A stretch of 64,000 bases of DNA from Escherichia phage KEP2. The position numbers and the translations under genes were made by a program. Under the pieces are notes generated by a model. It did no database searches. It saw nothing but the letters and a program-made list of their open reading frames with translations, and was not told the DNA's origin. Shown here piece after piece: positions 2,569-31,366 of this stretch. Where the stretch lies: sequence record PP047752; one strand, given 5' to 3'. How positions within the stretch are numbered: the stretch's first letter is position 1; the number at the start of each line of letters is the position of its first letter.

Positions 2569-2940
2569 ATGAAAAACAGAACAAACAAAGGCCAGTTTAA
2601 AAAAGGCCAGTCTGGAAACCCATCTGGAAGACCAAAAGGCTCTCGTAACAAAAGCTCACTTGTAAAAGCTCAACTGACCATTGATAATTCTGCTGAGTTT
2701 GCTGCAAAGTTGTTTGAAGCGATTGTTACAAGGGACGCTGCTAAGCTTGCAGAGTTCGGGTTAAACACAGATGACGTAACCATCAAGAGCATGATTGAGG
2801 TCGGTAAAACTATCTTTACTCACTCAGCAGGTGAGATGAAAGCACTTGCAGCAGACACTAAGAAGACTCCTGATAATGGTGGTCAGTCACAGACAGATAA
2901 CAAACCAACGTTCTCTGCTGTAGCGACTCTCAAAAAATAA
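2569..2940 (+). CDS. hypothetical protein with Gly/Pro/Lys-rich N-terminus (GNPSGRPKGSRNK)
   Basis: 123-aa ORF downstream of promoter-like region. Confidence 0.5.
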   Translation: MKNRTNKGQFKKGQSGNPSGRPKGSRNKSSLVKAQLTIDNSAEFAAKLFEAIVTRDAAKLAEFGLNTDDVTIKSMIEVGKTIFTHSAGEMKALAADTKKTPDNGGQSQTDNKPTFSAVATLKK

Positions 2941-2952
2941 TTTTAAAAGGTG

Positions 2953-2988
2953 TTGACAGACTCTACAAAGTTACTCTAAAGTCTGTCA
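2953..2988 (+). promoter_or_regulatory. TTGACA box inside a 9-bp inverted repeat (GACAGACTC…AGTCTGTC), promoter/operator candidate upstream of 3022 gene
   Basis: TTGACA at 2953-2958; palindrome arms at about 2955-2963 and 2981-2988. Confidence 0.35.
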
Positions 2989-3021
2989 CATCAAACAACA
3001 AATGAGAGAAGAGAGTAAAAT

Positions 3022-4437
3022 ATGAGCGAATTATTTAAACATGCGCACCTTCATGCAGGTCGAACTGAAAATGGTGCTGTAAACCATACTTCATCAATGT
3101 CTGCTCTGGTAGACTTCTACAAAGCCGCTGGCTCAAGCCGTAGCAATGTAGAAATTTTACCAGACCTGTTCTACAAAGCTTTGCGTGAGGATGTTGATGT
3201 TGCAGTTCGTATTTTACTGCATATGCGAGATGTAAGAGAAGGTATGGGTGAGCGTAAAGCTTTCCGAACTGTTTTACTTCAAGCGATTGAAGATAAAGTT
3301 TTAGAACCTACACAGGTTCTTCGCATTATGGATAAGATTGCAGAGCTTGGTCGTTTTGATGACTTCAAAATCTTCGTAGGTACTCGTTTTGAGACAGATG
3401 CCTTCAAACATTTAGAAGCAGCATTACTAGACCCTGCAACAGCAGGTTTAGCAGCTAAGTGGTTACCACGAGTAAAACCACGCCACAAACAGTTTGTAAA
3501 ACGTTTCTGTAAGTTTGCAAACTTAAGTGAGAAGGAGTATCGCACACTGTTATCTGCACTGTCTGATACAGTTGAGCAAAAAATCTCTGCTAATGAGTTT
3601 GGTAAGATTGACTACAGCAAGATTCCTTCACTCGCTGCTGCACGTTACCAAAAGCTCTTTAACCGTAAAGATGGGGAACGTTACAAAGCTTACATTGAGT
3701 CCCTCTCAAAAGGTGAGGCTAAGATTAACGCTGGTGCTGTTTACCCATACGATGTGATTAAATCTATCAAGTATGGTAATGCAGATGTTGCTAATGAGCA
3801 GTGGAAAGCACTACCAAACTGGATGGCAGATGGTGAAAACATCTTGTGTATGACTGATGTTTCAAGCTCAATGTCTTGGGTGAATCTTGGTTCAATCACT
3901 GCCCTTGATATTGGTGTATCACTTGCCTTGTATGTAGCAGAACGCAATACAGGTTGCTTTAAGAATGAGTTAATGGTTTATTCAACAAACCCTCACTTCA
4001 TCGAACTGAGTGGTGATTTACGAAACCGTCATCGTCAGGTAATGCGTCATGTTGAATATGGCTCAACTAACTTACAAGCAGCTTTTGACCGCATTCTTGA
4101 GATAGGTAAGAGAAACAACTTGACTCAGAAAGATATGCCAAGTAAGCTTATCATCTTCTCTGATATGGAGTTTAATCAGGTTGATGGTGCAAATGGTCGT
4201 ACAAACTTTGAAGCAATTCAGAGTAAGTACAAAAAAGCTGGATACGAAATGCCACAACTAGTATTCTGGTACTTAGCAAACCGTAATGGTACTTGCGAAG
4301 TATCTGTTAAGGATAATGGTGTAGCAATGGTATCAGGGTTCTCTCCAGCCACTTTAAAAGCTCTGCTTGGTGGTGAGAAGTTTGACCCAATCAGCGTAAT
4401 GCTCAAAGCAGTAATGATTGACCGTTACATCTGGTAA
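3022..4437 (+). CDS. vWA-domain protein, candidate Ro60/Rsr-like (TROVE-vWA) RNA-binding protein
   Basis: 471 aa; MIDAS-type D-x-S-x-S (MTDVSSSMSW) and downstream LIIFSDMEF motif resemble the Ro60 vWA domain as I recall it; helical N-terminal ~270 aa; lies just upstream of tRNA/Y-RNA-like cluster. TROVE assignment is not verified. Confidence 0.45.
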   Translation: MSELFKHAHLHAGRTENGAVNHTSSMSALVDFYKAAGSSRSNVEILPDLFYKALREDVDVAVRILLHMRDVREGMGERKAFRTVLLQAIEDKVLEPTQVLRIMDKIAELGRFDDFKIFVGTRFETDAFKHLEAALLDPATAGLAAKWLPRVKPRHKQFVKRFCKFANLSEKEYRTLLSALSDTVEQKISANEFGKIDYSKIPSLAAARYQKLFNRKDGERYKAYIESLSKGEAKINAGAVYPYDVIKSIKYGNADVANEQWKALPNWMADGENILCMTDVSSSMSWVNLGSITALDIGVSLALYVAERNTGCFKNELMVYSTNPHFIELSGDLRNRHRQVMRHVEYGSTNLQAAFDRILEIGKRNNLTQKDMPSKLIIFSDMEFNQVDGANGRTNFEAIQSKYKKAGYEMPQLVFWYLANRNGTCEVSVKDNGVAMVSGFSPATLKALLGGEKFDPISVMLKAVMIDRYIW

Positions 4438-4455
4438 AAAGTTTTAAAAAGGGTA

Positions 4456-4484
4456 TTGACAATGTGTTTGATACCCTTTAATAT
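4456..4484 (+). promoter_or_regulatory. sigma70-like promoter (TTGACA-17-TAATAT) leading the tRNA array
   Basis: TTGACA 4456-4461, 17-nt spacer, TAATAT 4479-4484; flanked by GGGTAT/ATACCC inverted repeat. Confidence 0.55.
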
Positions 4485-4546
4485 GTTCTACATAGAAACG
4501 AAATGAGAGCTTTTCTAAGATACTGAAAAATATTTTAAAAAAGTTC

Positions 4547-4580
4547 TTGACAACCACTAAAAAATAATGTTAAAGTGGTT
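4547..4580 (+). promoter_or_regulatory. second TTGACA box with ACCACT/AGTGGT inverted repeat
   Basis: TTGACA 4547-4552; weak -10 candidates; palindrome arms 4553-4558 and 4575-4580. Confidence 0.35.
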
Positions 4581-4602
4581 ACATAGAGTTTGAAAAGTTT
4601 AT

Positions 4603-4679
4603 CTCTGTTTAGCTCAGCTTGGTAGAGCGTTCCGTTTGGGGCGGTAAGGCCGGAGGTTCAAGTCCTCCAACAGAGACCA
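4603..4679 (+). tRNA. tRNA-Pro (anticodon TGG)
   Basis: Acceptor complementarity, TAGCTCAG D-arm, anticodon loop TTTGGGG, T-arm GGAGG-TTCAAGT-CCTCC. Confidence 0.7.
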
Positions 4680-4686
4680 AATTAAT

Positions 4687-4764
4687 GTTCCAGTAGACAA
4701 AATGGTAAAGTCACCACTCTTTCAAAGTGGATATTTGAGGGTTCAAATCCCTTCTGGAACGCCA
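4687..4764 (+). tRNA. tRNA-Glu (anticodon TTC)
   Basis: Acceptor GTTCCAG/CTGGAAC, anticodon stem CCACT/AGTGG with loop CTTTCAA, T-loop TTCAAAT, CCA encoded. Confidence 0.7.
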
Positions 4765-4771
4765 GTTTTGA

Positions 4772-4844
4772 CAGAAGACCAATTACAGCAAACTTAATCT
4801 TATTCATCTGACACGAAATCGGACAAAGAAGAGGTTTGGTCTGG
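4772..4844 (+). repeat. hairpin module A of CAGAAGACC…GGTCTGG family
   Basis: 5' CAGAAGACCAA pairs with 3' TTGGTCTGG; CAGCAA box in loop. Confidence 0.5.
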
Positions 4845-4855
4845 TCATTAAGAAT

Positions 4856-4932
4856 TGCGGGTATAGAGAAAGGGCGTCTCACATGTCTCATTAGCATGGT
4901 ATCGGCAGGTTCGACTCCTGCACCCGCCTCCA
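4856..4932 (+). tRNA. tRNA with anticodon CAT (Met or Ile2)
   Basis: D-stem GAGA/TCTC, anticodon stem CATGT/GCATG with loop CTCATTA, T-arm GCAGG-TTCGACT-CCTGC, CCA encoded; one acceptor mismatch. Confidence 0.55.
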
Positions 4933-4938
4933 ATTTTG

Positions 4939-4998
4939 CAGAAGACCGTATTCAGCAACAAAATACTTTTTGCGGATAAAAGAAAAAACACGGTCTGG
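4939..4998 (+). repeat. hairpin module B of CAGAAGACC…GGTCTGG family
   Basis: 5' CAGAAGACCGT pairs with 3' ACGGTCTGG (compensatory change relative to A and C); CAGCAA box. Confidence 0.5.
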
Positions 4999-5009
4999 CA
5001 ATGTATTAA

Positions 5010-5086
5010 GGTTAGGAAGCACATAAGGTATGTGCGGTCGCCTGTTAAGCGAATGGCACAGGGTTCGAATCCCTGACTAACCGCCA
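5010..5086 (+). tRNA. tRNA-Asn (anticodon GTT)
   Basis: D-stem GCAC/GTGC, anticodon loop CTGTTAA, T-arm CAGGG-TTCGAAT-CCCTG, CCA encoded. Confidence 0.7.
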
Positions 5087-5173
5087 AATTATAATAAGTA
5101 TTTCAAGATGATGTTTTGAGAGGGCTATTTAGCCCCTCCCTTAAAGAGTTCTTACGAGTATTCTTTAAAGGAG

Positions 5174-5248
5174 CAGAAGACCAAATTCAGCAAGTACGTA
5201 TGATATTTTCAAGCCAATCAAATTTTGAAAAATTTAAACTTGGTCTGG
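5174..5248 (+). repeat. hairpin module C of CAGAAGACC…GGTCTGG family
   Basis: 5' CAGAAGACCAA pairs with 3' TTGGTCTGG; CAGCAA box. Confidence 0.5.
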
Positions 5249-5261
5249 CTCAACAAATTTA

Positions 5262-5393
5262 CAGAAGACCGTTTACAGCAAAACTTAAACAATCTATTTC
5301 TCCGGTAAAGAAAAGGTGAAGGTTCGATTCCTTCACTCGGCAGATGTCGAGTTGGTGTAATGGTAACACTTAAGATGATAAACAACGGTCTGG
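5262..5393 (+). ncRNA. candidate Y-RNA-like (YrlA-like) ncRNA with permuted tRNA-like core
   Basis: Terminal stem AGACCG(5266-5271)/CGGTCT(5386-5391); inside, T-arm GAAGG-TTCGATT-CCTTC (5318-5334), 7-bp acceptor-like stem ACTCGGC/GTCGAGT closed by AGAT loop (5335-5352), D-arm GTGT-AATGGTA-ACAC (5355-5369). Confidence 0.45.
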
Positions 5394-5542
5394 TAATTAT
5401 CTTTGTAGGTGAGCTATTAAGCTTACCTGTGAGTATGCGACCACAAAGGGTGAAAGGGTAAATTCTAGATTTAAACCCAACAAGGCACATCGCTACAGAC
5501 CTTAAGCAAGTCTGGGTAGCTTATCTACAAAGATAATTTAAT

Positions 5543-5618
5543 GGAAGTGTAGCAGAATGGTGATGCGGCAGACTTTTAATCTGACAGGCGATGGGTTCGA
5601 ATCCCTCCACTTCTACCA
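5543..5618 (+). tRNA. tRNA-Lys (anticodon TTT)
   Basis: Acceptor GGAAGTG/CACTTCT, anticodon loop CTTTTAA, T-loop TTCGAAT, CCA encoded. Confidence 0.6.
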
Positions 5619-5622
5619 ATAT

Positions 5623-5699
5623 GGTTCAGTCGCAGATAAGGTAATGCAGGGGTTTCATAAGCCCTTTGAATGTGGGTTAGATTCCCATCTGAACCTCCA
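5623..5699 (+). tRNA. tRNA with anticodon CAT (Met or Ile2)
   Basis: Acceptor GGTTCAG/CTGAACC, anticodon stem GGGGT/GCCCT with loop TTCATAA; T-loop atypical (TTAGATT). Confidence 0.5.
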
Positions 5700-5701
5700 A
5701 T

Positions 5702-5776
5702 TGTGGGTTAGCATAAATGGTAATGCAAACGGCTGATAACCGTTAGAAGAGGGTTCGATACCCTCACCTACAACCA
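5702..5776 (+). tRNA. tRNA-Ile (anticodon GAT)
   Basis: D-stem GCAT/ATGC, perfect anticodon stem AACGG/CCGTT with loop CTGATAA, T-arm GAGGG-TTCGATA-CCCTC, CCA encoded. Confidence 0.75.
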
Positions 5777-5791
5777 ATTTCAATAAAGTTG

Positions 5792-5820
5792 TTGACATTG
5801 AGATGTGACCACTTTATAGT
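5792..5820 (+). promoter_or_regulatory. sigma70-like promoter (TTGACA-17-TATAGT) inside the tRNA array
   Basis: TTGACA 5792-5797, 17-nt spacer, TATAGT 5815-5820. Confidence 0.55.
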
Positions 5821-6113
5821 AACTAAAATACTTCATAATATGTATAATTCAAACACCAATACATGAGCGTTAGACGTAACACAATGTGGGGAAATTTGTT
5901 GTACATATTCTGAATAGTTTTCGTTGCGTAGCGTCTATTTTGCAAATTTAAAATAAATGCAAACGACAATGTTTTTCTGGCAGTAGCTTGATAGGCTAAA
6001 CACCAGTGAGGTCTTCCAATCCCTCATCAAAGAATTTGGCGTACTCGCCCACGGTATGATTAATAAGGTGGGCATCTTTAAGGGCTTTCTAAGAGAGTCT
6101 TTAAAGATAATTA

Positions 6114-6195
6114 CGGGGCGTATCTCAGCGGTCTTCTAAACCGCCGTTAACCGAGTAAGTGGAGTATGCGGGTTCGAGTCCTGCCGCCTCGACCA
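6114..6195 (+). tRNA. atypical tRNA-like element (T-arm, acceptor and TCT anticodon-like loop; no recognisable D-arm)
   Basis: Acceptor CGGGGCG/CGCCTCG plus CCA, T-arm GCGGG-TTCGAGT-CCTGC, stem-loop GCGGT-CTTCTAA-ACCGC; 82 nt. Confidence 0.4.
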
Positions 6196-6209
6196 ATTTT
6201 GGAGAAATC

Positions 6210-6557
6210 ATGAAAACTTGTATTAGGTGCAAACTTAGCAAGGATGAAAATGATTTCTACATGAAAGATGGTAAGAGAACTCATTCATACTGTAAAAAGT
6301 GTGTTAATGAGCAAACCATAGAAAGACAAAGAGCACTTAAACTTTCAGCTATTGAGTACAAAGGTGGGGTTTGTCATGATTGTGGTAAAAGGTATCATCC
6401 AGCAGTGTATGACTTCCATCATTTGAATCCTTCAGAGAAAGATTTTAACATTGGTCATAGAAAAAGTCTGAAGTTCTCTCAAGAACTAAAAGATGAACTT
6501 GACAAATGTGTTTTGCTATGTTCAAATTGCCATAGGGTAAGACATGCAAAGTATTAG
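6210..6557 (+). CDS. HNH homing-endonuclease-like protein
   Basis: CxxC…CxxC zinc pairs and HH…N…CH motif (YDFHHLNP…CSNCHRVRH); start taken at ATG 6210 because track start 6159 overlaps the tRNA-like element. Confidence 0.7.
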   Translation: MKTCIRCKLSKDENDFYMKDGKRTHSYCKKCVNEQTIERQRALKLSAIEYKGGVCHDCGKRYHPAVYDFHHLNPSEKDFNIGHRKSLKFSQELKDELDKCVLLCSNCHRVRHAKY

Positions 6558-6694
6558 TTAGCAGATTGCTTAGACGACCTTATCGGGTCTCCGTGTAAGG
6601 AGGTGGTCTGTATCTCATGTTTTCCAGAACATGTAAATAATCTGAGAAGGGGCTTTACAGTGTTGCGAAAATACGGTAAGCTTCGAATTATAGT

Positions 6695-6776
6695 GTGGGA
6701 CGATGTTAAGACTCTAAGGCATGAGCAACGGCCTCCAAAACCGTTTCAAAGTGGTTCAACTCCTCCGTCCCATGCC
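6695..6776 (+). tRNA. tRNA-Trp-like (anticodon CCA), atypical length
   Basis: Acceptor GTGGGAC/GTCCCAT plus CCA, anticodon loop CTCCAAA; D-region too long for a canonical fold. Confidence 0.4.
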
Positions 6777-6790
6777 AAAGTCTTATTAGG

Positions 6791-6878
6791 GGTAGGTAGC
6801 GGCTAATGGTAGCCAAACTGTCTTGAAAACAGTTGCCACTGTAGAGATACGGTGAGGGTTCGACTCCTTTACTTACCG
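6791..6878 (+). tRNA. tRNA-Ser (anticodon TGA), long variable arm
   Basis: Acceptor GGTAGGT/ACTTACC, anticodon stem ACTGT/ACAGT with loop CTTGAAA, ~20-nt variable arm, T-loop TTCGACT. Confidence 0.6.
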
Positions 6879-7135
6879 CCTAATAAGATTTAAAGCCAAG
6901 CTTCATTCGGATGTTGCTTTGGTATCCCTCGTGTATTGTCGTACACACTGATAAAGCACCTAGTAGGTGTCACGGAGAAGAGATAATATCAAGCTCTCCA
7001 AAGGTTCTAGTCACCGGATTAAACAAGACTATGCAAAGACCAATTTAGGTCTTTTTAGAGGGCTTCTAAGGTTATTACAGCTTGTTGTGGAACCTTGTTG
7101 CTTAGGTTCTTAGAAGTTCTCTAAAAAGATTTAAT

Positions 7136-7212
7136 GCACCTATAGCCCAACTGGTAGAGGCAGCAGACTTAGAATCTGCTCAGTGTGAGTTCGAATCTCT
7201 CTAGGTGTACCA
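7136..7212 (+). tRNA. tRNA with anticodon TAG (Leu codon CUA) but short variable loop
   Basis: Acceptor GCACCTA/TAGGTGT plus CCA, 6-bp anticodon stem AGCAGA/TCTGCT with loop CTTAGAA, T-loop TTCGAAT. Confidence 0.5.
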
Positions 7213-7219
7213 AATTAAT

Positions 7220-7295
7220 GCAGGTGTAGCAAAATGGTTATGCGGCTGACTCTTAATCAGTAAGACGATGGGTTCAATTCCCTCCACCTGTACCA
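7220..7295 (+). tRNA. tRNA-Lys (anticodon CTT)
   Basis: Acceptor GCAGGTG/CACCTGT, anticodon loop CTCTTAA, T-loop TTCAATT, CCA encoded; paralogous to 5543-5618. Confidence 0.6.
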
Positions 7296-7301
7296 AACAT
7301 T

Positions 7302-7377
7302 GGGGATGTAGTTTACATGGTTAAAACATAAGTTTTGCAAACTTAAGTACAGGGTTCAATTCCCTGCTTCTCCACCA
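7302..7377 (+). tRNA. tRNA-Ala (anticodon TGC)
   Basis: D-stem GTTT/AAAC, perfect anticodon stem TAAGT/ACTTA with loop TTTGCAA, T-arm CAGGG-TTCAATT-CCCTG, CCA encoded. Confidence 0.7.
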
Positions 7378-7459
7378 ATTAGTGCATCCATAGTTTAAAT
7401 GGGAAAATTACAGTCTTCCAAACTGAGGTTGAGGGTTCGATTCCCTCTGGATGCTCCAA
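7372..7459 (+). repeat. 88-bp perfect direct repeat, copy 1 (contains tRNA-Gly)
   Basis: Identical to 7785-7872 by direct comparison. Confidence 0.85.
7384..7458 (+). tRNA. tRNA-Gly (anticodon TCC), copy 1
   Basis: Perfect acceptor GCATCCA/TGGATGC, anticodon loop CTTCCAA, T-arm GAGGG-TTCGATT-CCCTC, CCA encoded. Confidence 0.75.
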
Positions 7460-7465
7460 ATTAAT

Positions 7466-7541
7466 GCTCCTATCGTATAATTGGCTATTACGGTTGCCTT
7501 GTAAGCAACTTATCAGGGTTCGAATCCTTGTGGGAGCACCA
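7466..7541 (+). tRNA. tRNA-Thr (anticodon TGT)
   Basis: Acceptor GCTCCTA/TGGGAGC, perfect anticodon stem GTTGC/GCAAC with loop CTTGTAA, T-loop TTCGAAT, CCA encoded. Confidence 0.7.
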
Positions 7542-7543
7542 AT

Positions 7544-7632
7544 TCAGAGGTCAAGTGAAAGACCGCTGGTGTCAACTGAAGACCGTAACAAATTCCACGG
7601 AGTTGAGTTAGCGGCACAACTTCAGACCTCTT
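7544..7632 (+). ncRNA. structured spacer, candidate small RNA related to the AGACC hairpin family
   Basis: Outer stem CAGAGGTC/GACCTCT, inner pairings CTGAAG/CTTCAG and CCGCT/AGCGG; contains CTGAAGACCGTAACAAATT resembling the 5' box of modules A-D. Confidence 0.3.
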
Positions 7633-7636
7633 TCAT

Positions 7637-7711
7637 ACTCGCTTAGTTTATATGGTAAAACACCACCCTTACAAGATGAAGAAAAAGGTTCAAGTCCTTT
7701 AGTGAGTACCA
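7637..7711 (+). tRNA. tRNA-Val-like (anticodon TAC), weak anticodon stem
   Basis: Acceptor ACTCGCT/AGTGAGT plus CCA, D-stem GTTT/AAAC, T-arm AAAGG-TTCAAGT-CCTTT; only 3 of 5 anticodon-stem pairs. Confidence 0.45.
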
Positions 7712-7712
7712 T

Positions 7713-7790
7713 GTTCCAGTATCCCAATTGGCAGAGGATGCAAGCTCAAACCTTGTATTAGTGACGGTTCGAATCCGTCTTGGAACACCA
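7713..7790 (+). tRNA. tRNA with anticodon CAA (Leu codon UUG) but short variable loop
   Basis: Acceptor GTTCCAG/TTGGAAC plus CCA, anticodon stem GCAAG/CTTGT with loop CTCAAAC, T-arm GACGG-TTCGAAT-CCGTC. Confidence 0.5.
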
Positions 7791-7872
7791 ATTAGTGCAT
7801 CCATAGTTTAAATGGGAAAATTACAGTCTTCCAAACTGAGGTTGAGGGTTCGATTCCCTCTGGATGCTCCAA
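7785..7872 (+). repeat. 88-bp perfect direct repeat, copy 2 (contains tRNA-Gly)
   Basis: Identical to 7372-7459. Confidence 0.85.
7797..7871 (+). tRNA. tRNA-Gly (anticodon TCC), copy 2
   Basis: Sequence identical to 7384-7458. Confidence 0.75.
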
Positions 7873-7895
7873 GTTATTTTACTCTCTCTCAATTA

Positions 7896-7968
7896 AAATA
7901 ATAATAATGCCCTGCTATAAGTATTCTTCCTTTCGCTACCGAAGAGTATTTTTAGACAGGGCTTTTTT
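7896..7968 (+). terminator. compound hairpin plus T-run at end of tRNA array
   Basis: GCCCTG…CAGGGC arms followed by TTTTTT. Confidence 0.45.
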
Positions 7969-8033
7969 ACAGAGTTATACTTTATAAGAAGACTTATACA
8001 GTATGTCTCTGACGTACATTGTGGTTTCTCCTT

Positions 8034-8057
8034 GACGGTCTCTGTACCGTCTTTTTT
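8034..8057 (+). terminator. rho-independent terminator-like hairpin
   Basis: GACGGT-CTCTGT-ACCGTC followed by TTTTTT. Confidence 0.55.
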
Positions 8058-8093
8058 AAGGAGAAACATGGTTAATTATTTGGAGAAAACATA

Positions 8094-8294
8094 ATGAGCG
8101 AGACCGTTTATAAAGAACTTTATGAAGCTAATAAGAAGCTAGAATTTATGCAGAATACTATCATGGCAATTGCAGATAGATTGTCTGTAGCAACAGGTAT
8201 TGATATCAAAGAAGCCTCTATGGATGCACTCCTTGATGCTGTTGATGCAAAGTTCGAAGTTAAGAAAGAAGAGACTGCTACAGACTCTGAATAA
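8094..8294 (+). CDS. hypothetical protein (first gene of morphogenesis module)
   Basis: 66-aa ORF preceded by GGAGAAA RBS. Confidence 0.45.
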   Translation: MSETVYKELYEANKKLEFMQNTIMAIADRLSVATGIDIKEASMDALLDAVDAKFEVKKEETATDSE

Positions 8295-8315
8295 TTCTAT
8301 TTGCGGAGGTGCTTA

Positions 8316-9917
8316 ATGGACTTAAATGCTGTTAAGCAGAAGCGAGTGGAAGATGTTAGGAAAGTCCTAGCTGGAGAGTTGGGGCTTTCTGATGAAGTAA
8401 AAGAAATTATCAAATCATTCGGTAAAGACCCCTCTAAATTCCTTCCAACTCAAATTCTGACTTTATTAAGATACACACCAGACCAAGTTAGACTTATCTT
8501 CAAATTGATGACTGATAAGAACTATGTAGCCCCTCAGCCGGGTTCTCAAGAGGTCTTTTTAAATACTAATGCTGACTTGGTTCTCTATGGTGGTGCTGCT
8601 GGTGCTGGTAAAACTGCTGCATTGTTAATGGACTCTTTAAGGTTTATTGAAGACCCTAACTATAATGCTGTATATTTCCGTCGAAATACAACACAGTTAC
8701 AAGGTGGTTTATGGCCTGCTGCAAAGAAACTATTTGGTAAGTTTGGTGGGGTTCCTCACGAGCAGAAGATGACTATCACATTCCCTTCTGGGGCAACTAT
8801 CAAGTTCACCTACCTAGAACTTGAAAAGCACGCTGAAGGCCATCAGGGTATTGAATACTCAGCTATCTACTTTGACGAAGGTACACACTTCTCTGCTTCA
8901 CAGATTTCATACCTACAGACCCGTCTACGTTCTGGTGCTGAAGGTGACTCATACATGAAGATTTCTATGAACCCAGATAGAGACCACTTCATTTATGATT
9001 GGGTAGAACCCTTCTTAGATGAAGAGGGTTACCCAGACCCTGAGAAGTGCGGTCGTATTCGTTGGTATGTTATGAATGATGGTGTGATGGTTTCTGATTG
9101 GGAGAGAGACAAGATTCTTGAAATGTTCCCTCTTGAGATTCCCCAGACATACACCTTCATCTCTGGTACGATTGATGATAACCCAATTCTTGACTTCTTA
9201 GAACCTAAATACCGTGGTAAGTTGGAAAACAACACACCTGTAAACGTTGCAAGACTTCGTTTCGGTAACTGGAAGGCTCGTGCAGAAGGTTCAAACTATT
9301 GGCAAAGACAATGGTGTGAGATTGTTGATTCACTCCCAGAAGATGTGTTTGATGTCAGAGCATGGGACTTAGCAGCAACTTTACCATCTGAGATTAACCC
9401 TAATCCAGACTGGACAGCGGGTGTTAAGATGGGTAAATCTAAAAAAGACGGTTGCTATTATATCATTGATGTAGTAAGATTTAGAGATAGACCCTCTGGA
9501 GTCGAAACACAAATTAATTTGACTGCTGAAAGTGACGGTAAGCGAACTGGTATTTTTATCCCTCAAGACCCAGGCGCTGCTGGTAAATCCTATGCAACAT
9601 CCCTCATCAGGAAACTTGCCGAGAAAGGTTATCGCGCAAGAGCTAAACCAACAAATAAAGATAAAGTTACCCGCTTTGCGGGATTTTCTGCTGCTTCTGA
9701 AGCTGGACTTGTAAAAGTCTTGAGAGGTAGTTGGAACGAAGCTTATTTCCAAGAACTTGAAGGTTTTTGTGGTGATGGCAAAACTAAAGATGACCAAGTG
9801 GATGCTACCAGTGATGCTTTCAACAGTCTTAATGAAGTTAAATTATTCAAGCCACCATCAATGGGTGCTCACACAGACTTAGTGAGAGGAAACCCATATG
9901 AGGGGCTTAGACGTTGA
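8316..9917 (+). CDS. terL: terminase large subunit
   Basis: Walker A LYGGAAGAGKT; size and position ahead of portal; start moved to ATG 8316 (RBS GGAGG at 8305-8309). Confidence 0.85.
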   Translation: MDLNAVKQKRVEDVRKVLAGELGLSDEVKEIIKSFGKDPSKFLPTQILTLLRYTPDQVRLIFKLMTDKNYVAPQPGSQEVFLNTNADLVLYGGAAGAGKTAALLMDSLRFIEDPNYNAVYFRRNTTQLQGGLWPAAKKLFGKFGGVPHEQKMTITFPSGATIKFTYLELEKHAEGHQGIEYSAIYFDEGTHFSASQISYLQTRLRSGAEGDSYMKISMNPDRDHFIYDWVEPFLDEEGYPDPEKCGRIRWYVMNDGVMVSDWERDKILEMFPLEIPQTYTFISGTIDDNPILDFLEPKYRGKLENNTPVNVARLRFGNWKARAEGSNYWQRQWCEIVDSLPEDVFDVRAWDLAATLPSEINPNPDWTAGVKMGKSKKDGCYYIIDVVRFRDRPSGVETQINLTAESDGKRTGIFIPQDPGAAGKSYATSLIRKLAEKGYRARAKPTNKDKVTRFAGFSAASEAGLVKVLRGSWNEAYFQELEGFCGDGKTKDDQVDATSDAFNSLNEVKLFKPPSMGAHTDLVRGNPYEGLRR

Positions 9918-9924
9918 TAGCTAG

Positions 9925-11400
9925 GTGAGAAGAATGGCAGAAATTACAGAAACACAAGAAAGCTTACCACCATTTAGAATGGGTGAAGTAGGTTCTTTGG
10001 GTCTGAAGGTTAAGAATGGTAGAATCTATGAAGAACCTCGTCAGGCACTAAGGTTCCCTGAAAGTATTAAAACTTTCCAATTAATGATGCGTGACCCTGC
10101 TGTAGCAGCATCTGTAAATATTATTAAGATGTTTGTCAGAAAAGTCAACTGGAGATTCGTACCTCCAAAGGGAAAAGAGCAAGACCCTAAAATGCTTGAA
10201 AGAGCAGACTTCTTTAATTCTTTAATGGATGACATGGAGCATGATTGGGCAGATTTTATTAACTCTGTAATGTCATTCTGCACTTATGGGTTCTGTGTTA
10301 ACGAAAAGGTTTATAAGAAACGTCAGGGTAAAAAAGGAAAGTACCAGTCAAAATTTGATGATGGTCTAATTGGGTGGGCTAAATTACCAATCAGAAACCA
10401 GTCAACACTTGATAAGTGGTATTTTGACGAAGACTTTAGAAAAGTTACTGGTGTCAGACAAAATCTAAGAAATGTTTCACATATTGCTGGAGCAATTAAT
10501 CTTGGGGAAAGACCACTAACAAGAAAACTTCCACGAGCTAAATTCATGCTGTTTAAGTATGATGATGAGTATGGTAACCCAGAAGGTCGTTCACCATTAC
10601 TTAACGCTTATGTACCGTGGAAGTATAAAGTACAGATTGAAGAGTATGAAGCTGTTGGTGTTTCAAGAGACTTAGTAGGTATGCCAAAAATTGGTTTACC
10701 ACCAGACTATCTAGATGAAAATGCAGAACCTGAAAAGAAAGCTTTCGTACAATACTGCAAAACTGTTGTTAATGATATGATTGCTAACGATAGAGCAGGT
10801 TTAATCTGGCCTAGATATATCGACCCAGATACTAAAGAGGATATTTTTGAGTTCTCATTAGTTTCTAGACAGGGTGCTAAAGCATATGACACAGGCTCTA
10901 TCATTGACAGATATTCTAAGCAGATTATGATGGCATTTATGTCAGATGTTCTTGCTATGGGTCAGTCAAAGTACGGTTCATTCTCTCTTGCAGATTCTAA
11001 GACAAGTCTATTAGCAATGTCAGTAGATATTCTGCTGAAGCAAATTAAGAACGTAATTAACCGTGACTTAGTTGCACAGACTTATGCTCTTAATATGTGG
11101 GATGATGAAGAACATGTACAAATCACATATGATGATATCGAAACTCCAGACCTTGAAGCAATTGGTTCTTATATTCAGAAGACTGTTGCAGTAGGTGCTT
11201 TGGAAGTTGACAAAGAGCTATCTAATAAACTTAGAGAGCATATTGGTCTTCCTCCTGCTGATGAGTCTCAGCCAGTATCTGAAAAGCTTTCTCCAAATAG
11301 CCAAAGCCGTTCAGGGGATGGTTATAAGACCGCTGGAGAAGGTACTGCAAAGACACCTTCAGCGAAAGACCCAAGCACAGCAAATAAGGCAAATAAATAA
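9925..11400 (+). CDS. portal protein (by synteny)
   Basis: 491-aa ORF directly after terminase. Confidence 0.6.
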   Translation: MRRMAEITETQESLPPFRMGEVGSLGLKVKNGRIYEEPRQALRFPESIKTFQLMMRDPAVAASVNIIKMFVRKVNWRFVPPKGKEQDPKMLERADFFNSLMDDMEHDWADFINSVMSFCTYGFCVNEKVYKKRQGKKGKYQSKFDDGLIGWAKLPIRNQSTLDKWYFDEDFRKVTGVRQNLRNVSHIAGAINLGERPLTRKLPRAKFMLFKYDDEYGNPEGRSPLLNAYVPWKYKVQIEEYEAVGVSRDLVGMPKIGLPPDYLDENAEPEKKAFVQYCKTVVNDMIANDRAGLIWPRYIDPDTKEDIFEFSLVSRQGAKAYDTGSIIDRYSKQIMMAFMSDVLAMGQSKYGSFSLADSKTSLLAMSVDILLKQIKNVINRDLVAQTYALNMWDDEEHVQITYDDIETPDLEAIGSYIQKTVAVGALEVDKELSNKLREHIGLPPADESQPVSEKLSPNSQSRSGDGYKTAGEGTAKTPSAKDPSTANKANK

Positions 11401-11900
11401 TGGCTGAAGTTATCTCTATTTCAAATGCTACACGAGTGCATTCGTATAGAGGTGTCCTTATCATTACTGATAAGTTATCTGTAGAGGCTGGCTCAAGGGT
11501 CAGCCTTTCAGGTTATGTTAGTGATGGTGGAATCTCTGACGTTTTCACTATTTGCAGGTTACTTGATGCACCAATGAGTGGAAAACCGTTTATTTCAGGA
11601 AATTGTAGTGAAATTGTTAAAATTCCATTTGACAGTTCATGCCTTTTGGGTGTAAAGTTATATAACTGCGAGAATAAACGTATCAATGTTAATAGCATTG
11701 AAGCCGCTTTCATTACCCTCGACACTGCATTTCAATCTCCAATGACAGTTAATAAAGAAACAAACAGACTTGAATACATTTTTTCACAAAATGATTACAA
11801 AGTACTTGTCAAAGGTAAAGTATATGATATGATTGTAAATGTGGTAGATGAATCCGGTAACCATTCAACAGTCCTTAAACAAAAAGTAAGGTTTAATTAA
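11400..11900 (+). CDS. hypothetical head-module protein
   Basis: 166-aa ORF, start overlaps portal stop. Confidence 0.45.
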   Translation: MAEVISISNATRVHSYRGVLIITDKLSVEAGSRVSLSGYVSDGGISDVFTICRLLDAPMSGKPFISGNCSEIVKIPFDSSCLLGVKLYNCENKRINVNSIEAAFITLDTAFQSPMTVNKETNRLEYIFSQNDYKVLVKGKVYDMIVNVVDESGNHSTVLKQKVRFN

Positions 11901-12232
11901 TGGGAACATTAACTATTGATGGTAAGAATAAAATCCTCGCCACGCTAACCCCAACGACTATTATTTTACACAATGTAGACCCAACGGCAGACCCTACAGC
12001 AAATAAGGTTACTCAGCCAGTGGCTATTTATTTTTCTGAACCGGATAATGGCTTAATTGCCTCAGAAGACACAGTTAATATCACTGTTCCAGCTTCTGCA
12101 ACGGTCTCACACTATAGCTTGTGGGATGCTAACGATAAATGCGTGGCAACTGGTGCTCTTAGCAAACCTCAATTCTTTGCTGAAGAAGGTATCTATGTTA
12201 TCTCTTCAGTCTCTGTAGATTTAAACAAATAG
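11900..12232 (+). CDS. hypothetical head-module protein
   Basis: 110-aa ORF, overlapping stop/start. Confidence 0.45.
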   Translation: MGTLTIDGKNKILATLTPTTIILHNVDPTADPTANKVTQPVAIYFSEPDNGLIASEDTVNITVPASATVSHYSLWDANDKCVATGALSKPQFFAEEGIYVISSVSVDLNK

Positions 12233-12243
12233 GGTGAGTAAAA

Positions 12244-13590
12244 ATGAGTTCGAATATCTTCAGACTTGCTGATAGATTATTCAACCAACCTTTACTAGCC
12301 ACTGAATCCTTAGCTCACTCAGCAGCAACTTATGTGAATAACAGATTGCTGGGTGATGTCCAAGCAGCAGTAAACTTTGATAAACCCAAAGGTGAAGCAA
12401 GAAGTCTTTTAAAAGTAAAAGATGACATTGCTATTATCCCTATTATGGGTGGTTTAACTCATCGTATGACATTCATTGATGCAATGTGTACAGGTGGTTT
12501 AAGCTCTTATGAAGGTTTGCGCAGAGGCTTTGACGAAGCTTTAGCAGATGAGTCAATCAAGACTATTGTTCTGCATATTGATTCTGGTGGTGGTGAAGCT
12601 TCAGGTTGCTTTGAATTAGCACGTCACATCATGGCTTCAAGAGGCCAAAAGAAAATTATTGCTTATGTAGATGAGTTCGCTTGTTCCGCTGCATATGCTC
12701 TTGCATCTTCTGCTGAAGAAATTATTGCATCACCAGATGCAGATGTTGGTTCTATTGGTGTAATCATGGTTCATCAGGAATTAACTAAGGCATTTGAAAA
12801 GAATGGCGTAACAATTAACGTCATCAAAGCTGGTGAGTTTAAAGGTATGGGTTCACCATTCCAAGCACTTTCAGAAGAAAGCAAAGAAAGACTTCAAAAG
12901 AGAATTAATGATACCTACGCAACCTTTACAGGTTTTGTAGCTGAATCTCGCAATCTCTCTGAAGAAGCTGTAAAGAATACTGAGGCGAATGTTTATTCTG
13001 CTCAGGAAGCTCTTGAACTTGGTTTAATTAACTCAATCATGTCTCAAGATGATTTCTTAAATTACTTACAAGGTTCTGAAGAGGCTCCTGTAAGTTTAAA
13101 CGTTAACAATTCAGGTGAAGAAATGACTGAACAAGAAAAGCAAGAACTAGAAGCTTTGCGTCTTCAGGTTGCTCAAATGAAAGCTAAAGAACAGGAAGCT
13201 GCTTTGTCAGATTTGACTAATAAGATTTCTGCTTCTGCTGAAGCTTTTGGATTTGATGCAAAAGAAGCTGCAACGACTATTTTAGGTGCTGGTCTTGATA
13301 ACCCTCTGAGCGTTCTGTTTATGAATGCTATGGAAGGTGCTAACCAGAAACTTAATGAAACTATCGCGTCCCATGCTTCTGCAATGGAAGAAAAAGAATC
13401 AGAAATTACCAAGCTGAAAGAAACTGCTGGTGCTGTTCTTGAACATTCCAACGCTATGGAAGAAGTGGGTAATGACGGCGAAGCTGATTTGGTTGAAGAA
13501 GAAAAAGAACCAGCTAAGAATGCTTCCGAAGACACCGCTGAACAACGCAAACTGGCTCTCCAGAATGCTCTAAAATCTCTTATCAAATAA
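12244..13590 (+). CDS. prohead protease (S49/ClpP-like) with C-terminal scaffold-like coiled-coil region
   Basis: IPIMGGL…HIDSGGGEASG serine-peptidase-like N-half; E/K/A-rich C-terminal half. Confidence 0.6.
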   Translation: MSSNIFRLADRLFNQPLLATESLAHSAATYVNNRLLGDVQAAVNFDKPKGEARSLLKVKDDIAIIPIMGGLTHRMTFIDAMCTGGLSSYEGLRRGFDEALADESIKTIVLHIDSGGGEASGCFELARHIMASRGQKKIIAYVDEFACSAAYALASSAEEIIASPDADVGSIGVIMVHQELTKAFEKNGVTINVIKAGEFKGMGSPFQALSEESKERLQKRINDTYATFTGFVAESRNLSEEAVKNTEANVYSAQEALELGLINSIMSQDDFLNYLQGSEEAPVSLNVNNSGEEMTEQEKQELEALRLQVAQMKAKEQEAALSDLTNKISASAEAFGFDAKEAATTILGAGLDNPLSVLFMNAMEGANQKLNETIASHASAMEEKESEITKLKETAGAVLEHSNAMEEVGNDGEADLVEEEKEPAKNASEDTAEQRKLALQNALKSLIK

Positions 13591-28816: not shown

Positions 28817-31366
28817 ATGGCAGATTACAAGTTGAGTCAATTAAACTCAATCGACACAATTCGTTCAGAAGACCTATTGCACATCAGAGTTAAGAAAAGA
28901 CCTGAAATGTTGGGTGACGAAGACCGTAGAATGACCTATCAAGACTTCTTAGCTTCCTTCAAACTAGAAAGGTTTGTTCAGATTGCTGGGAGCACTATGA
29001 CGGGGGATTTAGGTATTGTCAAGTTACTTTACGGTGGAAAGGCTGTATTTGACCCTACAGACTCTTCTGAGATTACTATTGGGGATATTTTAAAGACTTT
29101 TAAAATTAACTCAAATGGTCTTAAACTCACTATCGCAGATGCTTCAAGGTCAGCAACTGTTTATCATACTTTGAATAAACCAAGTCCTAATGAACTTGGC
29201 ATGAGAACTAATGAAGAGAATGATGCAAGATATGCAAGGCTTGCTGTTACAAACACATTCTCTGGGACTCAGAACATTCAAGGTGATGCTAACTTACTTC
29301 GTCTTAGAAACCAGAATGCAAATAATGCGCAATATATTGAGGGTGTGAACTTAGATGGTTCAGCTAGATGGTGGGTTGGTATTGGTAGTAATGGCTCTGA
29401 TGAAGTAAAACTGTACAATAACAAATACAACTCAGCTTTGGCTATTGCAAGCAATATCTCTGTTAATAAGTCTTTAGCAATCACTGGACAAGTTCAACCT
29501 TCAGATTTCTCTAACTTAGACGCTAGATACTTTACTCAGACAGTCGCTAATCAGAGATTTGCACAGTTAGCTGGCAATAACACCTTTACAGGTGCTAACA
29601 CATTTAGGACTATGAGTGTTATTTCAAATGCTGCTGCCATCACACTGCAATGTGCATCAGCAAACGAATCCCTGTATCTACTTGCAAAAGATTATGAAGG
29701 TGGAAACTTATGGTATCTTGGTAAAGGTAGTTCAGGTGCTGGTGTAACTATCTACAACTATACCACTAACACCTCTTTGGTCTTAGATGCTGCTGGAGTA
29801 TCAGCAAATAAAAATGTCAGAATCACTGGTCAAGTTCAACCTTCAGATTGGGCTAACATTGACTCTAGATATATTCCGGCAGCAACATTAAGTACAATTG
29901 CAAGAACTAATGCAAGGAATACTTTTAATGGTGTACAGACAGTTGTTACGGATAATGAAGGTCTGATTGTTAAAAACTCTACTCAGAATAGACCATTATA
30001 TATTCGTGGTGTGGACACTACTAATGTATCAAGATGGTGGATTGGTGTTGGTGGTGCTGATACGAATGATGTTACCCTAAATAACAGTTATTCTGGAACC
30101 CAATTGGTTCTCGGGAATACAACATCATACATTAACAAAACATTGACTATTGCTGGACAAGTTCAACCTTCAGATTTTTCTAACTTAGATGCTAGATACT
30201 TTACGCAAAGTGCTAGTGATAGCAGATACCTAAGAATCAGAAGCACTAGCTTCAATGTGGGAAACACTGAGAAGTGGGCTAAAATTGCCACTGTTGTGAT
30301 GCCACAATCAGCATCCACTGCTGTTATTGAGGTATTTGGTGGGTCAGGTTTTAATATTAATACACCACAACAAGCAGGTAAATGTGAAATTGTTCTGCGA
30401 ACTTCAAATAACAATCCAAAGGGCTTAAATGTTGTTGCTTGGAGAACATCAGATAACACCATTGTCAGGGATATTGGTTATGTGAATACTTCTGGAGACA
30501 CCTATGATATTTACTATCTTGCTGGTACGTATCAAAACAGCACAACGACAAGGGTTCAGTCTTCTAGTAATGCAAGTGTACAGTTGTTTGAAGTCCCACA
30601 GACATTTGATGATGCTCCACAAGGTATTGTGAAGGGTACAATTGCAAAATACTACACAAGTTTGCAAAAACCAACCCCTTCAGATATTGGTGCATACACT
30701 AAAGCAGAGACTGACCAGAAGATTGCAGAAGCAATTAGTGACTCTACAGACCTGAATAAAATCTATCCAGTGGGTATTGTGACATGGTTTAACAGTAATG
30801 TTAACCCTAATACAGCACTTCCTGGTCTAACTTGGACGTACCTGAATAATGGTGTTGGTAGAACTATTAGAATTGCAGCAGCAAATGGTTCAGATGTTGC
30901 TACAACTGGTGGTTCAGATTCTGTAACGCTATCTGTTGGTAACTTACCTTCACACACGCATAGTTTCTCTGCTACTACTTCATCATTTGATTATGGTACT
31001 AAGACGACAAATACGACTGGCAACCATGCTCACGATAGAGGTAACATGGAAATTTCTGGTGTGGTTGGTTGGTTCAGAAGTGATAACAGTGCATTCTACA
31101 CTGCGAGCGGTGCGTTTCAGATGGGTAGTTCTCAGGCTTCACATGGCTTCACAGGCTCTAACTTCACTTACGGTGCTGCTGTTGATTTCCACGCGTCAAG
31201 AACTTGGACAGGTGTAACCAACACAACTGGTAACCACGCGCACAGCGTTGGTATTGGTGCTCACAGCCACACAGTTAGCGGTAACACAGGTGGCACTGGT
31301 TCTGGTTCAGCATTTAGTGTTACTAACCAGTTCTACAAGTTAATGGCTTGGGTGAGAACTGCTTAA
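28817..31366 (+). CDS. long tail fibre protein with HxH repeats and internal triplicated segment
   Basis: 849 aa; C-terminal HTHSF / GNHAHS / GAHSHTV motifs; three copies of ITGQVQPSDFSNLDARYFTQ-type segment. Confidence 0.65.
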   Translation: MADYKLSQLNSIDTIRSEDLLHIRVKKRPEMLGDEDRRMTYQDFLASFKLERFVQIAGSTMTGDLGIVKLLYGGKAVFDPTDSSEITIGDILKTFKINSNGLKLTIADASRSATVYHTLNKPSPNELGMRTNEENDARYARLAVTNTFSGTQNIQGDANLLRLRNQNANNAQYIEGVNLDGSARWWVGIGSNGSDEVKLYNNKYNSALAIASNISVNKSLAITGQVQPSDFSNLDARYFTQTVANQRFAQLAGNNTFTGANTFRTMSVISNAAAITLQCASANESLYLLAKDYEGGNLWYLGKGSSGAGVTIYNYTTNTSLVLDAAGVSANKNVRITGQVQPSDWANIDSRYIPAATLSTIARTNARNTFNGVQTVVTDNEGLIVKNSTQNRPLYIRGVDTTNVSRWWIGVGGADTNDVTLNNSYSGTQLVLGNTTSYINKTLTIAGQVQPSDFSNLDARYFTQSASDSRYLRIRSTSFNVGNTEKWAKIATVVMPQSASTAVIEVFGGSGFNINTPQQAGKCEIVLRTSNNNPKGLNVVAWRTSDNTIVRDIGYVNTSGDTYDIYYLAGTYQNSTTTRVQSSSNASVQLFEVPQTFDDAPQGIVKGTIAKYYTSLQKPTPSDIGAYTKAETDQKIAEAISDSTDLNKIYPVGIVTWFNSNVNPNTALPGLTWTYLNNGVGRTIRIAAANGSDVATTGGSDSVTLSVGNLPSHTHSFSATTSSFDYGTKTTNTTGNHAHDRGNMEISGVVGWFRSDNSAFYTASGAFQMGSSQASHGFTGSNFTYGAAVDFHASRTWTGVTNTTGNHAHSVGIGAHSHTVSGNTGGTGSGSAFSVTNQFYKLMAWVRTA
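29460..30240 (+). repeat. three in-frame copies of a ~330-340-bp repeat unit inside the fibre gene
   Basis: CACTGGACAAGTTCAACCTTCAGAT… recurs at about 29482, 29824 and 30151. Confidence 0.6.

Follow-up and report, generated by a model that had tools for sequence, protein, structure and literature searches.

The tRNA array of Escherichia phage KEP2 has most probably been remodelled through recombination between look-alike tRNA 3′ ends, with loss of its distal block and insertion of an 81-nt copy of the tRNA-Gly gene in place of that block. The analysis was performed on a stretch of 64,000 nucleotides of the sequence record PP047752, hereafter called the window. Since the block which in related phages separates tRNA-Leu(CAA) from the trailer of tRNA-Cys is missing, the second tRNA-Gly copy was not simply added to a complete array but replaces about 2.26 kb, corresponding to 8 tRNAs and 3 ORFs.

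The window belongs to a Felix O1-like myovirus (Ounavirinae, Felixounavirus). It matches 312 phage records, nearly all of them Felixounavirus, and shows 95–98% identity over 10 kb with phages JN01, Felix O1 and others, the closest relative being Escherichia phage JN01 (97.6% identity over 10 kb). The array is flanked by a 471-aa DUF2828/DUF7788/VWA ORF (3022–4437) and by the large terminase (8301–9917). For the upstream ORF, neither a match to a PDB entry at the sequence level nor a meaningful NCBIfam match was obtained, and its resemblance to Ro60 is taken from the literature. ARAGORN detected 16 tRNA genes (15 species) in the window, versus 25 in the corresponding region of JN01, and the gene order from Pro to Leu(CAA) is the same as in the arrays of the relatives. 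The array also carries its own HNH ORF (6159–6557), which matches phrog_2255 with E = 6e-42.

The preliminary description of this region reported a perfect direct repeat of 88 bp (7372–7459 and 7785–7872) containing two identical tRNA-Gly copies. The repeat is perfect, but it is 87 bp long (7373–7459 and 7786–7872) because position 7372 is a C and position 7785 an A (Table 1). As the second-longest exact direct repeat of the 64-kb window measures only 25 bp, a repeat of 87 bp by chance is excluded. A looser similarity extends around it (7353–7463 versus 7766–7876, 111 nt, 91%), because the T-arms of the two preceding tRNAs resemble each other. In each repeat copy, the motif CACCA corresponds to the discriminator and the CCA of the preceding tRNA. 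The identity of the two tRNA-Gly genes was borne out, both being called by ARAGORN and by the Rfam tRNA model (RF00005, gathering threshold 29 bits). Each gene is 75 nt long, has the anticodon tcc at position 34 and encodes its 3′ CCA, the end reading ...GCTCCA in both copies. The set of enclosed genes initially listed (Thr, a spacer, Val and a tRNA with anticodon CAA) was also found, except that the gene then named Val-like is a normal tRNA-Val according to its Rfam score.

Table 1. Features of the tRNA array of the window discussed in the text (positions are those of the window).
Feature	Position	Strand	Remarks
Second array scar, TAACCGCCAAATT	5078–5090	+	13-nt identity of Asn and Asp 3′ ends; tRNA-Tyr and tRNA-Asp deleted across it
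tRNA-Ala(UGC)	7302–7377	+	3′ end and spacer = CACCAATT partner of junction J1
Repeat copy 1 (donor)	7373–7459	+	Last 5 nt of tRNA-Ala (CACCA), spacer ATTAGT, tRNA-Gly(TCC), one A
tRNA-Gly(UCC), copy 1	7384–7458	+	ARAGORN; Rfam tRNA model, 59.6 bits
tRNA-Thr(UGU), between the repeats	7466–7541	+	ARAGORN, Rfam
Conserved Thr-Val spacer, 95 nt, between the repeats	7542–7636	+	Predicted long hairpin, 5′ and 3′ ends paired
tRNA-Val(UAC), between the repeats	7637–7711	+	ARAGORN; Rfam, 55.8 bits
tRNA-Leu(CAA), between the repeats	7713–7790	+	ARAGORN
Repeat copy 2 (derived)	7786–7872	+	Last 5 nt of tRNA-Leu(CAA), spacer ATTAGT, tRNA-Gly(TCC), one A
Junction J1, 8-nt microhomology CACCAATT	7786–7793	+	Common to Leu(CAA) 3′ end and spacer and to Ala 3′ end and spacer; comparison with JN01 and radambza
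tRNA-Gly(UCC), copy 2, now last tRNA of the array	7797–7871	+	ARAGORN; Rfam tRNA model, 59.6 bits
Junction J2, CTCCAA	7867–7872	+	Common to Gly and Cys 3′ ends; end of a stretch of about 38 nt, 28/38 identical
Terminator-like long hairpin (7909–7962), then run of six T	7909–7968	+	Fold −27.8 kcal/mol, z = −5.0

The spacer between tRNA-Thr and tRNA-Val is conserved as well. Its predicted fold reached −30.7 kcal/mol (z = −3.2), and its sequence was 92–100% conserved across 259 phage records. One clear compensatory pair was found by comparison with phage TH18, in which the 5′ end of the spacer was misaligned by MAFFT; with only two sequence types, covariation is thin. A search of Rfam at E-values up to 10 gave no match between the spacer and known RNA families, Y RNA included, and its interpretation as a tRNA remnant was rejected since the T-loop is absent.

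For comparison, 34 arrays of relatives were read: ten from the phages JN01, radambza, FG1m, IME338, HY02, PHB11, GE_vB_BS, EcF-vB, Sf17 and Moogle, and 24 from IMG/VR loci annotated with ARAGORN. Sf17 and Moogle are members of Mooglevirus and provide outgroup support for the ancestral order. The common order is ...Leu(TAG)-Lys(CTT)-Ala-Gly(TCC)-Thr-spacer-Val-Leu(CAA), from which the metagenomic relative IMGVR_UViG_3300045988_004931 (hereafter L031) deviates. Downstream, the distal block of the relatives comprises Arg(ACG), one or two small ORFs (phrog_14202 and DUF7338), Gln(TTG), Leu(TAA), Gln(CTG), His, Phe, a 244-aa DUF7217 ORF, which is a membrane-protein ORF, then Ser(GCT) and Cys(GCA). 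Next to Cys(GCA) come the trailer (GTTATTTTACTCTC...), which is fixed, then the long hairpin resembling a terminator, and finally the terminase. This canonical distal array, which follows Leu(CAA) and ends in Ser(GCT)-Cys(GCA), is lacking in the window and present in 33 of the 34 arrays, that is, in all examined relatives except L031. The gene next to Leu(CAA) in the relatives is tRNA-Arg(ACG) or an ORF, never Gly, and Gly(TCC) is a single-copy gene in all 34 arrays. Copy 1 is syntenic with the sole Gly gene of all relatives; copy 2 occupies the place of the distal block, where no relative has a Gly gene. The segment bracketed by the repeats (Thr-spacer-Val-Leu(CAA)), whose presence or absence in related genomes had been proposed as a check, is thus general in the arrays read and lost in L031, and a second Gly occurs in none of them. 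The two-Gly layout is derived, as both Mooglevirus and the examined Felixounavirus arrays keep the single-Gly order.

The alignment with JN01 delimits the replaced block. Positions 5060–7815 of the window align to 2740–5526 of JN01, positions 7786–7876 align to the Gly gene of JN01, and positions 7845–12500 align to 7732–12389. The window is therefore collinear with JN01 up to the end of Leu(CAA), then presents the Gly copy, and then resumes at the last nucleotides of tRNA-Cys, so that 2256 nt of JN01 (5503–7758, locus L004) have no counterpart. Neither the DNA of the lost block nor its three proteins were found by blastn and tblastn in the 64-kb window of the roughly 86-kb genome.

Both novel joints coincide with sequence common to two tRNA genes of the ancestral array. 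At J1, the sequence is ...GGAACACCAATT/TTGCAGG in the relatives (Leu(CAA) followed by Arg), ...TCTCCACCAATT/AGTGCATCC at the donor boundary between Ala and Gly, and ...GGAACACCAATT/AGTGCATCC in the window, which places the joint within the microhomology of 8 nt. At J2, the Gly gene reads ...GGGTTCGATTCCCTCTGGATGCTCCAA/ATTAATGC, the Cys gene ...GGGTTCGAGTCCCTTCGGATTCTCCAA/GTTATTTT and the window ...GGATGCTCCAA/GTTATTTT; the joint thus lies within CTCCAA, in the similar T-arm/acceptor halves of Gly and Cys. From position 7873 onward, the window has the normal tRNA-Cys trailer. The terminator-like hairpin which follows the last tRNA here is found, with identical sequence, after Cys in IME338, FG1m and L031.

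This arrangement was searched for in wider collections. The stretch Leu(CAA)-Gly-downstream was contiguous in none of the 309 matching records (megablast and blastn, 50,697 phage records), and the exact patterns of J1 (23 nt) and J2 (23 nt in IMG/VR, 21 nt elsewhere) were not found in IMG/VR, in metagenome contigs or in 185,579 prokaryotic genomes. The 87-mer of the Gly repeat occurred at 265 places in 262 records, with three surplus places, and three surplus places appeared again in each of two spacer searches. Two records with more than one place were identified, GE_vB_BS and EcF-vB, and were rejected as two-Gly relatives: more than 7 kb separate their additional copy from the first, and both are oversize records labelled UNVERIFIED. 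No local second Gly copy was seen in about 260 GenBank relatives or in 27 IMG/VR relatives. An intact duplicated tRNA serving as filler at a deletion joint was seen in no other genome searched.

The age and the donor of the second copy can be approached from its sequence. It had been proposed that perfect identity implies a recent duplication. As tRNA-Gly is 95–100% conserved across the genus, a perfect match between the copies is by itself a weak argument for a recent origin; the recency itself is upheld by the lack of a local second copy in the relatives, by the novel junctions and by a rare allele. Both Gly copies of the window carry a minority T allele (AAATGGG), which 13 of 262 records and, among the loci, 2 of 32 share; JN01 and L031 carry C at this site. 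Taken together, the shared minority allele and the unique junctions show that copy 2 was derived recently from copy 1, within the same genome.

We propose that the ancestral order ...Ala-Gly-Thr-spacer-Val-Leu(CAA)-distal block-terminator-terminase, which is retained throughout Felixounavirus and Mooglevirus, lost the distal block (2256 nt in JN01) and received at this place the 81-nt segment "ATTAGT + tRNA-Gly(UCC)" of the same genome. J1 joins the 3′ end of Leu(CAA) to the Ala/Gly spacer via CACCAATT, and J2 joins the 3′ end of Gly to the tRNA-Cys trailer. The process was probably a break-induced repair, either as one synthesis-dependent repair with Gly as a templated insertion, or as two successive unequal exchanges. 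According to the first route, a broken end with homology to the Cys side would prime synthesis on a sister genome, at its Gly gene, copy leftwards through the spacer and re-anneal at CACCAATT. According to the second, a Gly x Cys deletion and an exchange between the Ala end and the Leu(CAA) end would take place in either order. The unambiguous stretch of Gly donor is only 73 nt long (7794–7866), copied from 413 bp upstream, and its anatomy, bounded by identities of 8 and 6 nt, fits a templated insertion; two unequal exchanges give the same product.

Free-standing homing endonucleases are present in phage tRNA regions, such as SegB of T4 and the F-Tfl enzymes of T5, and such enzymes cut endonuclease-free alleles and provoke repair. 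In the arrays of L012 and PHB11, a 137-aa HNH ORF (annotated as "HNH endonuclease" in PHB11) lies exactly in the 7-nt Gly/Thr spacer, and is 35% identical to the HNH ORF located elsewhere in the array of the window. No HNH gene is present at the Gly/Thr position of the window. By analogy, the Gly/Thr junction of the window could plausibly be the expected target allele of such HNH enzymes, and on circumstantial grounds a homing endonuclease of this spacer may have provoked the break. Like SegB and the F-Tfl genes, the HNH ORFs of Felixounavirus (that of the window and those of L012 and PHB11) are in intergenic spacers of the array; unlike for those enzymes, their link to rearrangement is one that we only infer. 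A wider hypothesis can be put forward tentatively, and we consider it rather doubtful: a single endonuclease cut at Gly/Thr in a mixed infection would have led to the copying of Gly as a templated insertion flanked by two microhomologies of tRNA 3′ ends, and such repair involving look-alike 3′ halves would be the main engine of tRNA deletion, fusion and duplication in Ounavirinae arrays. If true, endonuclease-driven repair would account for the Gly/Cys hybrid of L031, for the Leu hybrids of the Si3-type phages and for the loss of Tyr and Asp in the window.

These three rearrangements offer a comparison for J1 and J2. In the window, no tRNA-Tyr or tRNA-Asp follows tRNA-Asn, and a second scar is visible at this place (Table 1). 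The array of L031 ends with Ala-Gly*-trailer, where Gly* is a chimera of a Gly 5′ part and a Cys 3′ part with a crossover in GGGTTCGA (T-arm), the chimeric tRNA having two acceptor-stem mismatches. L031 also lacks Thr, the spacer, Val and Leu(CAA), has no duplication, and retains the Tyr, Asp and Arg(TCT) genes which are absent from the window. The Si3-type phages (Si3, FG1m, IME338) present Leu(CAA)/Leu(TAA) fusions with differing crossover points. When all 300 tRNA pairs of JN01 were ranked by their identity in the 3′-terminal 32 nt together with 6 nt of trailer, the pairs found at these natural scars came 2nd (Asn-Asp, the Tyr-Asp loss of the window), 5th (Gly-Cys, L031) and 6th (Leu(CAA)-Leu(TAA), Si3-type phages). 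The joints of these natural deletions are in the most similar tRNA 3′ halves. The Ala-Leu(CAA) pair ranked only 149th of 300 and J1 offers only 8 nt, hence part of the event was not driven by homology.

The event in L031 resembles that of the window in that the 3′ halves of Gly and Cys were the partners, the distal array was lost, and the trailer, the terminator and the terminase are the same. It differs in that the crossover of the window is at the Gly 3′ end with a duplication, whereas that of L031 is in the T-arm, gave a chimeric tRNA and duplicated nothing. The Gly x Cys deletion of L031 is an independent, parallel event at a different point. L031 as a precursor or a product of the window layout was rejected on its T-arm crossover and C allele. 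The Si3-type Leu fusions are likewise deletions within one array, the partners being two similar tRNA genes; they differ in that nothing beyond the interval from one Leu gene to the other was deleted, without duplication, and in that they are fixed in a recognised species and not peculiar to a single genome.

Other explanations of the layout were considered. The one which survives best is a recombination between co-infecting phages, in which a deletion variant of the type Ala-Gly-downstream would have recombined with a phage having the full array. L031 demonstrates that a deletion variant of this general type exists, and Felixounavirus genomes are mosaic. The rare T allele is nevertheless common to both Gly copies, together with an identical spacer, and L031 was not the partner, given its crossover in GGGTTCGA and its C allele. 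We hold this course of events to be unlikely; moreover, it is a sub-variant of the remodelling between tRNA 3′ ends proposed here, not a true alternative.

An assembly or library artefact, by a chimeric join or by the collapse of genome variants into one consensus, could be suspected from a layout which is unique among the collections searched, especially as repeats abound in tRNA arrays and deletion variants can occur in phage lysates. This is very improbable in view of the joints themselves. Exact identity between the joined sequences does not exceed 8 nt at J1 and 6 nt at J2, far below the k-mer and overlap lengths of assemblers, and therefore reads containing both junctions must exist. The joints are located precisely at tRNA 3′ ends and leave tRNA, spacer and terminator intact, like the scars of L031 and of the Si3-type phages. 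Also, an untrimmed circular overlap would have placed the two copies adjacent to each other, not 413 bp apart.

We give equally little credit to the idea that the second tRNA-Gly(UCC) was selected, whether to increase the supply of the decoder of GGA and GGG, to replace a host tRNA-Gly attacked by a defence nuclease, or to provide a processable tRNA at the 3′ end of the array transcript. In favour of this idea, copy 2 is intact and has kept its spacer and terminator context. Against this, GGA and GGG together account for 14.9 per 1000 codons, versus 45.6 for GGT (49 ORFs of the window), a local second Gly copy exists in none of about 260 relatives, and eight other tRNAs were discarded in the same event, which points to an accident over tuning. 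Copy 2 is most likely a neutral by-product. It is probably expressed and processed like copy 1, because its 5′ spacer is identical to that of copy 1 and because the tRNA-Cys trailer and the terminator-like hairpin follow it.

Finally, the recent duplication around three tRNAs of the preliminary description, taken as a plain segmental duplication of tRNA-Gly in which no sequence was lost, is scarcely tenable: the repeats do bracket the three tRNAs, the 87-bp copies are perfect and in direct orientation, and a tandem duplication of a 413-bp unit could be the first of two steps, but a plain duplication would retain Arg(ACG)...Cys, which is contradicted by the alignment with JN01 and by about 30 other arrays, whereas the right flank of copy 2 is the tRNA-Cys trailer, 2256 nt of the JN01 sequence are lacking between Leu(CAA) and this trailer, and both junctions of the replaced block of about 2.26 kb are at tRNA 3′ ends.

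The remodelling of the array through its tRNA 3′ ends has a precedent. In the 1980s, McClain and co-workers reportedly described hybrid tRNA genes and deletions of the tRNA region in phage T4, arising by unequal recombination between tRNA genes. Our literature search on hybrid tRNA genes in phages found nothing relevant. As in T4, recombination of partly homologous tRNA genes within one cluster removed the genes between them, with a joint in or at a tRNA end. Unlike in T4, the joint of the window leaves an unaltered tRNA-Gly and no hybrid, a duplicate gene was made, and the second joint is a microhomology of 8 nt; also, T4 belongs to the Tevenvirinae and the phage of the window to the Ounavirinae. 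The event is a unique instance of a known process, the deletion and hybrid formation in phage tRNA clusters by recombination of tRNA genes, and reveals no new kind of system.

The loss of tRNA genes is evidently tolerated. The tRNA genes of the Felixounavirus Bas63 are mostly non-essential on four strains of E. coli (PMC11482910). For the genus, tRNA counts of 17 to 23 (PMC8300805) and of 17 to 22 (bioRxiv 10.1101/2020.01.19.911818) have been published, and the 16 tRNA genes of the window, for 15 species, fall just below these ranges. For annotation, this is a warning, as a count of 16 tRNAs conceals 15 species and a loss of 2.3 kb. The phage is without ten tRNA genes and three conserved ORFs of its relatives, and might perform worse on hosts with tRNA-targeting defences. 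Also, through recombination of the 87-bp repeats, the 413 bp which they enclose are predicted to be easily deleted or amplified; for use in therapy or biocontrol, they predict a detectable subpopulation without Thr, Val and Leu(CAA). The array of the window constitutes a clean and datable case of the shrinkage and reshuffling of phage tRNA arrays, whose encoded CCA ends and conserved T-arms serve as recombination sites built into the genes.

Scars of recombination between tRNA genes of the array were also detected elsewhere. After tRNA-Asn, the window is without tRNA-Tyr(GTA) and tRNA-Asp(GTC), both of which are carried by its closest relative, JN01, and this place corresponds to a second deletion scar. 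In an IMG/VR locus (L031, IMGVR_UViG_3300045988_004931), the region from Thr through Cys is deleted and a natural chimeric tRNA is found, whose 5' part derives from Gly(TCC) and whose 3' part derives from Cys. As two mismatches are present in its acceptor stem, this tRNA may be crippled. Similar tRNA genes have also recombined in Si3-type Felixounaviruses, which carry Leu(CAA)/Leu(TAA) fusion genes as scars. Their crossover points differ: the fusion of FG1m retained the anticodon CAA and took its 3' end from Leu(TAA), and those of IME338 and Si3 have the anticodon TAA. The coordinates of all these features are collected in the table.

Features of the tRNA array and its surroundings in the window and in related loci (L-numbers)
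Feature	Coordinates	Strand	Remarks
Second deletion scar	window 5078-5090		joint in the 13-nt identity TAACCGCCAAATT of the Asn and Asp 3' ends
Chimeric Gly/Cys tRNA	L031 5497-5571		parts joined at GGGTTCGA
Leu(CAA)/Leu(TAA) fusion genes	L002 2015-2092; L003 4015-4093; L026 4297-4375		Si3-type Felixounaviruses
Free-standing HNH endonuclease ORF	window 6159-6557	+	spacer between Ile and Ser(TGA)
HNH ORFs of relatives	L012 2813-3226; L046 974-1387		array spacers
Odd RNA calls	window 5719-6195; L006 1493-2241; L015 1811-1881		Ile-Ser(TGA) gap of the array
Inverted repeat	window 7045-7134		26-nt arms, 85% complementary, 38-nt loop; between tRNA-Ser(TGA) and tRNA-Leu(TAG)
25-bp exact direct repeat	window 29484-29508 and 30153-30177		inside 849-aa ORF 28817-31366
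58-aa ORF	window 7893-8069	-	hypothetical in the FG1m annotation; antisense to, and overlapping, the terminator-like hairpin
471-aa ORF	window 3022-4437	+	DUF2828, DUF7788 and VWA domains; immediately 5' of the array
Thr-Val spacer, 95 nt	window 7542-7636; L007 3497-3592		conservation and fold

The spacers of the array, in the window and in relatives, also contain HNH endonuclease ORFs of the free-standing type. Some relatives have, exactly within the Gly|Thr spacer, an HNH paralogue which is 35% identical to the HNH ORF of the window. Several RNA calls, weak or unusual, in the part of the array between Ile and Ser(TGA) were probably false positives or tRNA remnants, namely the sub-threshold tmRNA matches (Rfam) in the window, a "permuted tmRNA" overlapping three tRNAs in the Mooglevirus Moogle (ARAGORN), and a 71-nt "tRNA-Trp(CCA)" called by ARAGORN in two related loci (L015, L035). 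The sole Rfam match of the inverted repeat, to a plant microRNA, was sub-threshold and spurious. Besides the 87-bp repeat, only one exact direct repeat of at least 25 bp was detected in the window, and it is probably an internal repeat of the encoded protein. The 58-aa ORF, which matched nothing in Pfam or PHROG, is probably not a gene.

The 471-aa ORF matches phrog_850, "RNA-binding protein", and found no sequence match in the PDB. It occupies the same position as gp130 in the Felixounavirus Bas63, and from this position we infer that the two are equivalent. Bas63 gp130 is reported to be structurally Ro60-like and to counter the Ppl defence, with Y-RNA-like genes in the array as its possible partners (PMC11482910). 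The Thr-Val spacer was conserved at 92-100% across 259 phage records, and it is predicted to fold into a long hairpin (z = -3.2), which is closed by pairing between the 5' and 3' ends of the spacer. No Rfam family was matched by this spacer. In TH18, a phage labelled Vequintavirinae, a version about 81-86% identical is located after tRNA-Gly(TCC), and its outer stem shows a compensatory change from GAGGTC/GACCTC to GATGTC/GACATC. The spacer may be a small stable RNA freed by tRNA processing; a further possibility is that it serves as the Y-RNA-like partner proposed for the Ro60-like protein encoded nearby.
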